Assembly: GCA_963735615.1 (NCBI GenBank)
Contig: CAVTLO010000003.1
Coordinates: 132,079 to 196,078 of the forward strand
Origin: an uncultured Solirubrobacteraceae bacterium
Lineage (GTDB): Bacteria; Actinomycetota; Thermoleophilia; Solirubrobacterales; Solirubrobacteraceae
Length of the DNA stretch: 64,000 bases
Reading direction: 5' to 3'
The notes under the pieces are model-generated. The model made no database searches, was not told the DNA's origin, and saw only the letters and a program-made list of their open reading frames with translations. The position numbers and the translations under genes were made by a program. This document shows, in pieces, positions 35,525-59,210 of this stretch (its first letter is position 1; every line of letters starts with the position of its first letter).

Positions 35525-35901
35525 AGACCGCCCGATGAGGGCGCGGCGGGGACTCCCACCTGGCCTGGCGCGGAGAAGCCTCTTGACTAGCTGGTGGTGA
35601 CTGAAAGAGACGATCATGTCGCACAAGCGGCAATCTACGACAGGACTACACGCCGCAGATCGATATGTATCAGCAGTCGATGAACTGCGCTGTCGCAAGC
35701 CGGCACTCGGTCCCAGCTGGGAGCCTCACGGAGGTAGACGTGGTGGCTGCCATCCCGTCAGATTCCCTCCTTTGTTTCTTTATCCGGATTAGTCTCGCTC
35801 TTTGCGGGAAATCCGTGTGTTTCAAGACCCACGCTCCAGGTGCGCACCGTAGTCTCGAACCCTAGAATCCGTCCAACATTTGCCTACCAAAGGAGCTGGC
35901 G

Positions 35902-36672
35902 GTGTCTGTAGATATCATTGCAAGCGTAATCGGCGCCGATAAGGCCAAGCGATGTTCAAGCGAGCAGCTTGATGTGCTAACGGAGGCACTTATCCGGGCT
36001 ATAGATGAGCATCCGCCGACACGGGTGCGACTCGAAGGGGTACTGGCAAAAATCCTGCTGGGCTTCTCCGTTTCGACCCATGCACCAGACGCAGTCAAAC
36101 TGCTCGATGCCAAAAGCAGCGTGATTTTGACTGTGACGCACTCTGAAAAGCCCTCCATGAATGGCAAAGGAAGCGAGAGCACGCGCTCTGTTCTCATTGA
36201 GGGCCCTATCGGTTCTGTCGTTACGTGCTATGACGATCAGCTTTTCCGCGTTGATGAGAACTCTGTCGTTCTCGTCAAGACTACCTCTAACGATATAGAG
36301 GTTCCCATTGCGACCGACTTCGTGTCTGGTGATCTGCCGGAAGGGATCTATCGCGGCAACGCGGACGGGTATATCTGGCAGCTGAATAAGGTCGTTGAGG
36401 TCGTTGGGCAAAGCTTCTGGGAAGAGGTCGAGGGTGCTACAAAGTGGGTCATCGAATGGGTCATAGAACACTGGGGCGGCCAGGATCCCGACCCCGATTC
36501 CGAAGAATTTCTAGAACTGTCAACAGACTTGGCGGAAAGCCCGACGATGCATCCGGTGCCGGACCTCCCACCCGGTGTCGTTGGCTACGCTCTCGATGGA
36601 AGCGGTAGCCACTCCACCAATAATCATGTAGACAACCTGTCCAGTATCAAGCTCGGCAACGCGCCCGAATAA
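35902..36672 (+). CDS. Hypothetical protein in a lower-GC segment
   Basis: SD AAGGAG 7 nt before GTG; 256-aa ORF; followed by a strong hairpin. Confidence 0.6.
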   Translation: MSVDIIASVIGADKAKRCSSEQLDVLTEALIRAIDEHPPTRVRLEGVLAKILLGFSVSTHAPDAVKLLDAKSSVILTVTHSEKPSMNGKGSESTRSVLIEGPIGSVVTCYDDQLFRVDENSVVLVKTTSNDIEVPIATDFVSGDLPEGIYRGNADGYIWQLNKVVEVVGQSFWEEVEGATKWVIEWVIEHWGGQDPDPDSEEFLELSTDLAESPTMHPVPDLPPGVVGYALDGSGSHSTNNHVDNLSSIKLGNAPE

Positions 36673-36683
36673 TTGAAGTCGCT

Positions 36684-36718
36684 CGTAGTGTGCCGGTCAC
36701 CTCAGCCGGCACACTACG
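36684..36718. terminator. 13-bp stem hairpin, probable terminator
   Basis: cgtagtgtgccgg-tcacctcag-ccggcacactacg just after the stop at 36672; no U-tract. Confidence 0.6.
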
Positions 36719-37108
36719 GCCCGGCGTGAGACTCAAAAGCATAAGCCGCCGGGTCGCGTCGCACAATCGGCGTTGGGCGGCCCAGAAGGAGCCGGCCCCT
36801 CCCAAGAGAGAACCGGCTCCAGATGCTACTTGCTTCTAATGAGAACTACGAGAAGAACTAGAAAGATAATTATAAAACTATCGTTCAATGCCTTCCTTTC
36901 AATGGTGCCGAAACAGATTCCTAGATCCTTCTTCGGAATCAGAACCAATGAGTAGGTTTGCGGAGCCTACAGCAACGGGCCACCCCGGCGACAGCTCCAG
37001 AGGTCGGAAGCTTGTGCCTGTCCACGTCGCACAAGTGCCGCTGCGCGACGCCAGGCGTCGTCCGTGGCTATTGGCGGAGCGTCACTCCTGCTCGCTTGCT
37101 GTCTGCCG

Positions 37109-37483
37109 CTAGCGCTCTGTGGCCTTGGCGGCGCCACGTAGCGTGCTGACGCCGAAGTCCTTGTGCAGGATCTGATCGGCGCGTGAGGGGCTGACGCCGT
37201 ACCGGCGTCCTGTCTCGCGCAGCGTGAGGCCCTCGATGAAGCGCAGGCGGAACATCTCAATGCTGCGCTCGTCCGGGAGCCGCACCCAGCCCCATTGGTT
37301 CGGGAGCGCCAGGCCACGCCTGTGCAGTCGCCGGACGATCTCATAGACCTTGGTTGGGCCGATGTCGGGGTGCTGCATCAGCTCGACGTTGGAGTGACTG
37401 GTCAGCTGCGTGACGTTGACGATGCCCGCCGAGTGCAGGCAGGCGAGCGTGGCGGGCCTAAGGCCCAGCTCGCTGACGCGCAT
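37109..37483 (-). CDS. Small protein: RNA polymerase alpha-CTD-like domain fused to a sigma70 region-4-like HTH
   Basis: RVSELGLRPATLACLHSAGIVNVTQL...VELMQHPDIGPTKVYEIVRRLHRRGLAL aligns by eye to alphaCTD; FRLRFIEGLTLRETGRRYGVSPSRADQI resembles sigma region 4. Confidence 0.7.
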   Translation of the reverse strand: MRVSELGLRPATLACLHSAGIVNVTQLTSHSNVELMQHPDIGPTKVYEIVRRLHRRGLALPNQWGWVRLPDERSIEMFRLRFIEGLTLRETGRRYGVSPSRADQILHKDFGVSTLRGAAKATER

Positions 37484-37495
37484 GGCCGTGCCCGC

Positions 37496-37762
37496 TCAGG
37501 CGACGTTGTGTCCGACCATCTGGATGTGGCGTACCGCCGCGCGGCTGGCGAAGACGTGGCCGTCTGAGGTGCGGTGGACGAGCCCGGCCTGTTGCAGCGA
37601 CAGGATGTAGTCGATGACGTCGGGCTTTTCCATCTCGCGCCCCAAGTCCTCGAGCGTCCACAGCGGCTGGTTGTCTTCGGGGTCGGTAAGGACGTAGAGG
37701 ATGTCGCGTTCGGTTTCGCGGGTCTTCCTGAGCGGGTCGTGGATAGGCTGCTGATCGGGCAT
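37496..37762 (-). CDS. Small hypothetical protein, winged-helix-like
   Basis: WTLEDLGREM...LQQAGLVHRTSDGHVFASRAA; AAGGAG upstream; co-oriented with the gene at 37483. Confidence 0.55.
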   Translation of the reverse strand: MPDQQPIHDPLRKTRETERDILYVLTDPEDNQPLWTLEDLGREMEKPDVIDYILSLQQAGLVHRTSDGHVFASRAAVRHIQMVGHNVA

Positions 37763-38051
37763 GGGGAGTTACAGCTCCTTCGTGTCCGGGCCTCGGCGCG
37801 GGAGAAGACGTGCCGAGGCCGCTTTGGCTTACGGAGCCGGCCAGGCTAGGGCTGCGTCGCCTGATGAGTCAAGGTGTGGAGCCGCGCTCTTCATGGGCTT
37901 GGGGCTGGCTTCCGGTAGCAAGCGGGACTTCGTCATGGGCGAGCGCATCGTCGTACGTCCGACCCTTACCGACCAGCCCTGTCTCGATAGAAGCGTATGC
38001 CTCGGTAGGGCGTTATACGATCTAGGATCGACTATGCAGTGATCCCACCCT

Positions 38052-38141
38052 GGAGGGGTGGCAGAGTGGTTGAATGCGGCGCTCTCGAAAAGCGTTGTGC
38101 GTCTGATTGGCGTACCGGGAGTTCGAATCTCCCCCCCTCCG
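38052..38141 (+). tRNA. tRNA-Ser(CGA), intact
   Basis: GGAGGGG/CCCCTCC acceptor stem, anticodon arm GCGCT-CTCGAAA-AGCGT, long variable arm, TTCGAAT T-loop, G73; TAGGAT -10-like box at 38023. Confidence 0.95.
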
Positions 38142-38282
38142 TTTTCGCCGGGTTCGTGACGGTTGTTCGAACCCCGCTCCGACTGAAGGCCGGCCGCGCG
38201 CTCGGTGAGTGAGGCGTAGACCTTGGTCTAGCGGTCCGGTGCTGTCGGTTGTATGTGCCGACGGTTGGACTACGCTAAGCGG

Positions 38283-58536: not shown

Positions 58537-59210
58537 TGCGGATCCTGGTGGTGGACGACGACCGCGCGGTGCGCGAAGCGCTGCGCCGCACGCTGACGCT
58601 GGCGGGATACGAGGTGCAGCTGGCGGAGGACGGCGAGGCGGCGCTCGAGCAGGTCGTGCAGGCGGAGCCGGAGGCGGTGGTGCTGGACGTGGGGCTGCCT
58701 GGGATCGACGGCCTGGAGGTGTGCAGACTGGTGCGCCGCGCGGGCAGCCGCGTGCCGATCCTGATCCTGACGGCGCGCGACGCGGTGGCGGACAGGATCG
58801 ACGGCCTGGACGTGGGCGCGGACGACTACATGCTGAAGCCGTTTGACGTGGGCGAGCTGAAGGCGCGGTTGCGGGCGCTGCTGCGTCGCGCGAAACCGCA
58901 GGAGGACCCGGACGCGCTGTCGTTCGCGGAGGTGCGCCTGGATCCGAACCGCCACGGCGCGCAGGTGGGCGAGAGCTTTGTGGAGCTGACGCGCACGGAG
59001 TACCAGCTGCTGGAGCTGCTGATGCTGAACCCGCGGCGGGTGCTGTCGCATAGCGTGATCTATGACCGCGTGTGGGGCTATGACTTCGGCCCGACGTCGA
59101 ACGCGCTGCGCGTGTATATCGGCTATCTGCGCCGCAAGCTGGAGGACGCGGGCGCGCGCGAGCTGATCCACACGGTGCGCGGCGTCGGCTATGCGCTGCG
59201 CGAGCCGTGA
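58536..59210 (+). CDS. OmpR-family response regulator (MprA-like)
   Basis: ILVVDDD, VLDVGLPGIDG, ADDYMLKPF, LRVYIGYLRRKL, TVRGVGY. Confidence 0.93.
   Translation: MRILVVDDDRAVREALRRTLTLAGYEVQLAEDGEAALEQVVQAEPEAVVLDVGLPGIDGLEVCRLVRRAGSRVPILILTARDAVADRIDGLDVGADDYMLKPFDVGELKARLRALLRRAKPQEDPDALSFAEVRLDPNRHGAQVGESFVELTRTEYQLLELLMLNPRRVLSHSVIYDRVWGYDFGPTSNALRVYIGYLRRKLEDAGARELIHTVRGVGYALREP

Follow-up and report, generated by a model that had tools for sequence, protein, structure and literature searches.

Most bacterial activators of transcription act through two modules of RNA polymerase, the C-terminal domain of the alpha subunit (alphaCTD) and region 4 of the sigma factor (sigma4), and members of the OmpR family as well as the AraC domain contact one or both of these modules. 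Phage T4 AsiA/MotA and gp33 provide analogues for a protein that stands in for sigma4 on the polymerase. The 64,000-nucleotide stretch of DNA that was analysed here (the window), from an uncultured Solirubrobacteraceae bacterium, encodes a protein of 124 amino acids in which copies of two parts of RNA polymerase are joined, those that recognise a promoter's upstream half. Both of its domains are well known, and the family to which it belongs, built from the two, is uncharacterised. A full-text literature search found no paper on such alphaCTD-sigma4 proteins, and the database names are automatic only ('hypothetical', 'AraC-like DNA-binding protein' and 'Sigma-70, region 4/... alpha chain C terminal domain'). 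A sequence-only reading of the window had described the protein as a stand-alone alphaCTD-sigma4 fusion and had proposed that it is either a polymerase mimic or decoy, or a -35-binding regulator.

Results

Domain architecture of the 124-aa protein

The gene (37109..37483, minus strand) ends in a TAG stop codon at 37109-37111. Its product comprises an alphaCTD-like (HhH)2 domain at residues 1-60 (37304..37483, minus), a linker LPNQWGW at residues 61-67 (37283..37303, minus) whose sequence is conserved within the close subfamily but varies across the wide family, and a sigma-70 region 4-like helix-turn-helix at residues 68-112 (37148..37282, minus), which carries an RLR motif (79-81) and the recognition helix S-P-S-R-A-D-Q. 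A single-chain AlphaFold2 model built from 22 family members has a pLDDT of 91.6 and a pTM of 0.84, with disorder only at residues 118-124.

The N-terminal domain matches RNA_pol_A_CTD (PF03118) over residues 2-54 with 25.4 bits against a Pfam cut-off of 23.8, while the NCBIfam rpoA models align their extreme C-terminus to residues 1-61. A sequence search of the PDB with residues 1-61 returned alphaCTD chains almost exclusively, the best matches all being RpoA alphaCTDs. The model of this domain superposes on the E. coli alphaCTD (3n4m_C) with an rmsd of 1.2 Å over 59 residues at 32% identity (Foldseek), and in VIA, which is independent of Foldseek, alphaCTD chains reach Z scores of 10.5 and 10.4 compared with at most 7.8 for HhH domains other than alphaCTD, such as the Rad51 N-domain. 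The HHH_5 profile of Pfam gives only 14 bits on the protein. A generic HhH fold, the outcome which the sequence-only reading had named as speaking against its proposal, is rejected since the alphaCTD chains clearly outrank the other HhH folds. The genome's own RpoA aligns without gaps at 40% identity over 58 residues.

For the C-terminal domain, Sigma70_r4 (PF04545) covers residues 72-108 with 33.2 bits (Pfam cut-off 24.1), and a PDB sequence search past residue 61 finds sigma factors. The model of this domain scores Z 5.4-6.0 against sigma4 domains, a range common to other small helix-turn-helix folds, so that the sigma4 assignment rests on the sequence profile. Both domain identities put forward in the sequence-only reading are thereby upheld. 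Pfam and NCBIfam scans found no match to sigma region 2 or 3 in the 124-aa protein, and TIGR02937 touches only residues 71-108 with a score under its cut-off. A true or split sigma factor is rejected, region 2 being absent from both the protein and the neighbouring genes. A LuxR/GerE regulator finds no support: GerE is found in one of 30 relatives (E 0.0068) and has no match in the window protein.

Family and distribution

A word-indexed protein search yielded 54 clusters that match at 58-91% identity and range in length from 98 to 149 aa, most of them being close to 130 aa; all seven loci that come from reference genomes belong to MAGs labelled Solirubrobacterales or Solirubrobacteraceae. When 1.8 billion representatives were searched exhaustively with a profile, 903 matched at E≤1e-3, among them 123 with E≤1e-10. 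Domain order was scored on the best 149 of the 903 with the profile split into its two domains, and 70 of these 149 present the alphaCTD-like domain followed by the sigma4-like domain; they are referred to below as the same-order representatives. Other profile matches are tandem arrays, with two to eight alphaCTD-like or three to six sigma4-like domains, and reverse-order forms. Metagenomic proteins with tandem arrays include P0055, P0057 and P0061-P0063 as well as P0084, P0090 and P0093. The reverse-order forms (P0097, P0196) keep an R265-type motif more often than the same-order family does. Among 30 diverse same-order members, Sigma70_r4 is recognised in 29 and RNA_pol_A_CTD in 17 (best E 2.3e-8).

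The family occurs in 41 of 121 sampled genomes of the genus, with 0-6 copies each, and in 22 of the 49 high-quality genomes; the genus tally includes the unpublished genome G349 and becomes 40 of 120 without it, while the other claims are independent of G349. Outside the genus, a sample of about 300 genomes from across the phylum gave no family match at E≤1e-12. The family is thus patchy and multi-copy within one genus of soil Solirubrobacterales. A tblastn search of 50,697 cultured-phage and 72,556 plasmid records gave no match, and a known phage or plasmid gene is rejected on that ground; IMG/VR viral contigs contain one match only, to the sigma4 part alone. An association with mobile elements, for which the sequence-only reading had suggested looking, is supported by relatives that lie on integrative islands. 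A defence-system component is rejected, the 124-aa protein having no PADLOC match; its 88-aa neighbour has only a weak CARF-like PADLOC match (E 0.005).

DNA-contact residues of the two domains

Residues 4-60 correspond to E. coli RpoA 258-314, two segments of equal length with an offset of +254. This match and the ungapped alignment to the host RpoA give the same residues at each DNA-contact position (R265 to A11, N268 to A14, N294 to D40, K298 to T44 and S299 to K45), reproducing the substitutions that had been listed by eye. The host RpoA has the canonical motifs V-R-S-Y-N-C-L-K and N-F-G-K-K-S. Retained in the window copy are C269 (C15), G296 (G42) and the V-E-L stretch of the 287 region, while the E261 position is occupied by a glycine. 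As a whole, the 265 determinant (R265, N268, C269, G296, K298, S299) is absent from the window protein. With R265, N268, N294, K298 and S299 replaced and a glycine at the E261 position, canonical binding to an UP element is not expected. The alphaCTD copy stands in a protein of its own with no alpha N-terminal domain as a tether, and the genuine rpoA of the same genome is located elsewhere (C1 near 1015 kb). Judged from the alignment, the alphaCTD DNA-contact residues are gone in nearly all of the 70 same-order relatives: only four have an arginine at the R265 position and four an asparagine at that of N268, glutamate occupies the S299 position in 40, and the second hairpin of the domain is not conserved across the set.

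No polar stretch of the family is better conserved than the sigma4 recognition helix. The residues of this helix recur among the 70 same-order representatives as E (48), R (59), V (53), R (52) and Q (57), and this E-R-V-R-Q of the wide family is the motif of the host's two primary-type sigmas, TRERVRQIE and TRERIRQIE. The window's subfamily presents S-R-(A/V)-D-Q, and the window protein additionally a proline at the first position. Its helix P-S-R-A-D-Q keeps two of the five primary-sigma -35 contacts when set against R-E-R-x-R-Q, and lies nearer to the WhiG/FliA type S-R-V-S-Q. R101 and Q104 are kept across the family. Since three of the five contact positions are altered (P99, S100, D103), the window protein should not read a canonical -35 element. 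The proposal of a -35-binding regulator draws support from the conserved family helix but should not hold for the window copy in its canonical form.

Partners, fusions and islands

In loci with called genes the order is an XRE repressor, the 88-aa gene, the alphaCTD-sigma4 gene and a 234-aa OmpR-type regulator whose start overlaps the alphaCTD-sigma4 stop; a second XRE gene sometimes comes next. An all-against-all comparison of twelve loci recovered the same gene set together with a divergent protein of about 280 aa and, a few kb off, an ATPase of about 746 aa with weak TraD/TrwB-like or AAA matches only. An OmpR-type gene lies within 1.5 kb, upstream or downstream, in nine of 14 loci. In full modules, OmpR-type regulator genes are found at L004:6396-7100, L023:8387-9091 and L001:6679-7380. 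The regulator combines Trans_reg_C with a receiver domain in which a glycine takes the position of the phospho-acceptor aspartate and E-A-D replaces the acidic pair, which points to an atypical, phosphorylation-independent type.

The 88-aa gene (37496..37762, minus) lies 12 nt 5' of the alphaCTD-sigma4 gene, in keeping with the co-transcription with a small winged helix-turn-helix protein noted earlier. Its product is a predicted winged helix (pLDDT 81) whose fold comes closest to IclR/MarR heads and to the winged helix of RuvB. A winged-helix gene stands directly 5' in nearly all loci, even at 32-45% protein identity. The C-terminal extension of some relatives resembles the 88-aa family (hhalign probability 94%, E 1.4e-7, 61 columns), a likeness found by profile comparison only, BLASTP of the 88-aa protein against the P0060 extension giving no match.

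Further DNA-binding domains are fused to the C-terminus of several relatives: XRE domains in P0058 and P0105, winged helices in P0060, P0099, P0110 and P0132, and AraC HTH_18 in P0104 and in a 282-aa paralogue within the window's own genome. The gene for this paralogue (L008:1501-2349; C1:1829969-1830817), which joins alphaCTD-like, sigma4-like and HTH_18 domains, has an OmpR-type gene upstream. Similar long forms may exist in many genomes of the genus, judging by open frames of 248-327 aa, and are verified only in the 282-aa paralogue and P0104.

The genome (3.73 Mb in three contigs, 92% complete) also contains another module, complete and 64% identical, at C3:767-768 kb, and an XRE-sigma4 relative which likewise lies 3' of a winged-helix gene. 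The complete module sits inside a stretch of about 28 kb with low GC at third codon positions, an island with genes for GmrSD, a DNA methylase and a large serine recombinase. At the edge of this island, an uninterrupted frame of 918 aa (L031:9054-11810; C3:781054-783810) carries the domains of a large serine recombinase (Resolvase, Recombinase and Zn ribbon; residues 88-433) and a complete LexA (713-912). The island may have inserted at the 5' end of lexA.

A conserved leader

The conserved leader spans 37763-37885 of the window. The window and the divergent loci share the order TTGACT or TTGCGT, 18 nt, TAGCCT, an A-rich stretch and a hairpin, followed by a (G)ACAC motif, the Shine-Dalgarno sequence and CTCC directly 5' of the ATG. 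In the window, TTGACT (37867-37872) and TAGCCT (37843-37848) with their 18-nt spacer form a putative promoter (37843..37872, minus), a function suggested by their conservation in homologous loci; a simple promoter scan found no match. The Shine-Dalgarno sequence AAGGAG of the winged-helix gene (37775..37780, minus) contains a GGAG that can pair with the CTCC before the ATG in a small conserved hairpin.

The larger hairpin or palindrome (37789..37820, minus) has arms of 12 positions with one A-C mismatch, a loop of 8 nt and a folding energy of -21.9 kcal/mol. A hairpin with arms of 10-12 bp is found at the equivalent leader position in at least ten loci, its stems differing at several paired positions in single-sequence folds. 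Counting of pairs in MAFFT alignments gave 51% paired, or 68% when slid by one column; the stems are out of register in these alignments, so the case for the hairpin rests on the single-sequence folds of ten loci. The leader has no match in Rfam. The element could be either an RNA structure or a palindromic operator.

The window copy as a trimmed block

In the window the pair occupies a block of 801 bp (37079..37879, minus) homologous to island regulatory modules, with 84% identity to that of island locus L004. The homology ends just 5' of the -35-like hexamer and just beyond the ancestral stop codon, so that the block contains only the promoter-like hexamers, the leader hairpin, the winged-helix gene and the alphaCTD-sigma4 gene. 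Remnants of XRE or OmpR-type genes were not found beside the pair, and the sole OmpR-type match in the window (58542-59198) is an ordinary response regulator with a canonical acidic pocket, which served as a comparison sequence. The divergent neighbour is tRNA-Ser(CGA) (38051-38142, plus), transcribed away from the pair. The earlier placement of the pair just upstream of an island tRNA has to be amended: the pair does lie 5' of the tRNA-Ser, but in its own block and not inside the islands on the 3' side of the tRNA.

The TAG stop codon replaces a glutamine of close homologues and of the otherwise identical P0001. Behind it lies the former tail of nine codons (37082..37108, minus) with the ancestral stop TGA at 37082-37084, and the codon change looks like a recent nonsense change that removed nine tail residues, which are unconserved and predicted to be disordered. 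Short alignments with L004 give moderately low dN/dS values of 0.40 for the alphaCTD-sigma4 gene and 0.64 for the winged-helix gene. The adjoining DNA at 35600-37100 has a low GC content of 53-60%, has no match in 30 relatives and was probably acquired recently. It contains a 256-aa ORF (35902-36672, plus) that neither Pfam nor NCBIfam recognises and that lacks a counterpart in the 30 relatives. In the closest relatives synteny starts only at the tRNA, and no convincing direct repeats of the tRNA were found left of the pair as marks of an island end. The window copy may be a functional minimal pair or a relic.

Discussion

The reading we favour, and to which we would give about an even chance, is that the 124-aa protein is a DNA-binding island regulator in which the sigma4 head reads a short site and the alphaCTD-derived domain touches the winged-helix protein and the OmpR-type regulator. 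It would be a small transcription regulator that originated from a mobile element and was built of two RNA-polymerase-derived domains. The C-terminal sigma4-type helix-turn-helix would bind DNA, at a target other than the canonical -35 element in the window's subfamily, where the helix has changed from E-R-V-R-Q to S-R-A/V-D-Q. The alphaCTD copy, with its minor-groove-reading residues gone, would most likely serve as a protein-contact module for constant partners, namely the co-transcribed winged-helix protein and, in complete modules, the non-phosphorylatable atypical OmpR-type regulator. Together with the XRE repressor these proteins would form the hub that regulates integrative islands in one genus of Solirubrobacterales, a hub of which the window would hold only the promoter, the leader and the two genes. 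We infer the DNA binding, the partner contacts and the regulatory role; the observations themselves cover the identity of the domains, the altered residues, the conserved pairing of genes, the fused forms, the island setting and the patchy occurrence. Several observations tell against this reading. Three of the five positions by which primary sigmas contact DNA are occupied by Pro, Ser and Asp in the window protein, and a sigma4 domain on its own covers no more than about 6 bp. The window copy is moreover without XRE and OmpR-type partners, ends at a premature TAG and shows the dN/dS values given above.

The partners from the OmpR family and with an AraC domain fit equally well a mimic of the RNA-polymerase surface, acting as decoy or anti-activator, which we regard as unlikely. 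Here the alphaCTD and sigma4 copies would present the surfaces that activators touch, and would dock or sequester the OmpR-type regulator, the fused AraC domain, host activators or anti-sigma-like proteins, holding them inactive or pre-assembled. The two domains are exactly the modules that activators contact, the DNA-binding residues of the alphaCTD copy have been lost systematically, and the recurrent neighbour and one recurrent fusion partner, the OmpR-type regulator and AraC HTH_18, belong to groups that act on these modules. A pure protein decoy, however, would not need the conserved sigma4 DNA-contact residues, and further DNA-binding domains have been fused on in relatives. The 261-determinant position, which touches sigma4, also argues against mimicry, being a glycine in the window protein and in 30 of the 70 same-order relatives and a glutamate in only three. 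Conservation of polar residues in the family is highest in the sigma4 recognition helix, which favours a DNA-binding regulator over a pure decoy. In a more specific version, which we consider quite unlikely, the protein would be a portable copy of the activator-docking face, with an alphaCTD that has ceased to bind DNA and a sigma4 fixed in its arrangement; OmpR- and AraC-type partners would be stored, pre-assembled or silenced on this copy, off the host polymerase. If true, this would be polymerase-surface mimicry by a host-derived mini-protein, a principle undescribed in bacteria.

Whatever the family does elsewhere, the window pair itself could be an inert relic, a decaying fragment of an island module beside tRNA-Ser. 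Just 801 bp of the module are left, with the XRE and OmpR-type genes gone and nine tail codons taken off by the TAG; the flanking 35.6-37.1 kb is low in GC and unmatched in relatives, and dN/dS lies at 0.4-0.64. Against decay stand two intact reading frames with intact promoter-like hexamers, leader hairpin and Shine-Dalgarno sequence, the unconserved and disordered nature of the lost tail, and the complete paralogous module elsewhere in the genome, which could supply the partners. We hold a relic to be quite improbable.

Very improbable is a sigma4 surrogate, in which the region 4.1/4.2 copy would sit on the beta-flap tip in place of host sigma region 4 and retarget or inhibit the polymerase: its R-L-R motif, in the helix preceding the recognition helix, is region 4.1-like and nearly invariant (R 60, L 66 and R 66 of 70) and the sigma4 profiles score above cut-off, but this motif belongs to the hydrophobic core of any sigma4 fold and the modules have no sigma2-like partner.

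The family copies both of the modules on which activators act, drops the DNA-reading residues of one and keeps those of the other, which makes it a class of regulator without a studied member. Binding to DNA would make the protein a small island regulator of a new type, whose reading head derives from sigma; binding to activators would make it a mimic of the polymerase surface. The biological weight of the window copy is modest given that it is a trimmed block of two genes.

Comparison with known systems places the N-terminal domain close to the alphaCTD (PF03118), with an rmsd of 1.2-1.5 Å over 59-63 residues, a Z score of 10.5 and 30-40% identity, whereas unlike in RpoA it lies at the N-terminus of a 124-aa protein with no alpha N-terminal domain. 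The C-terminal domain shares with sigma-70 region 4 (PF04545) the region 4.1/4.2-like helices, an L-R-x motif and the helix-turn-helix, but regions 2 and 3 of sigma-70 factors are absent and the protein is hence no sigma factor. By analogy only, it also recalls Mor/C of phage Mu, proteins of similar size (about 130 aa) from the regulatory region of a mobile element, in which a domain for protein contacts precedes a C-terminal helix-turn-helix. A Mor-bearing cluster appears among the language-model look-alikes of the 124-aa protein with a score of 0.86, which serves as a lead only; the N-terminal domain has no demonstrated relationship to Mor/C in sequence or fold. The 234-aa regulator of the module resembles the atypical orphan OmpR-family regulators of Actinomycetota such as GlnR and JadR1 in having no phospho-acceptor aspartate. 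A gene of this kind is absent from the window, and the likeness falls short of demonstrated orthology to any named regulator. With the winged-helix protein and the atypical OmpR-type regulator as its constant companions, the family offers a defined three-protein system open to direct testing.
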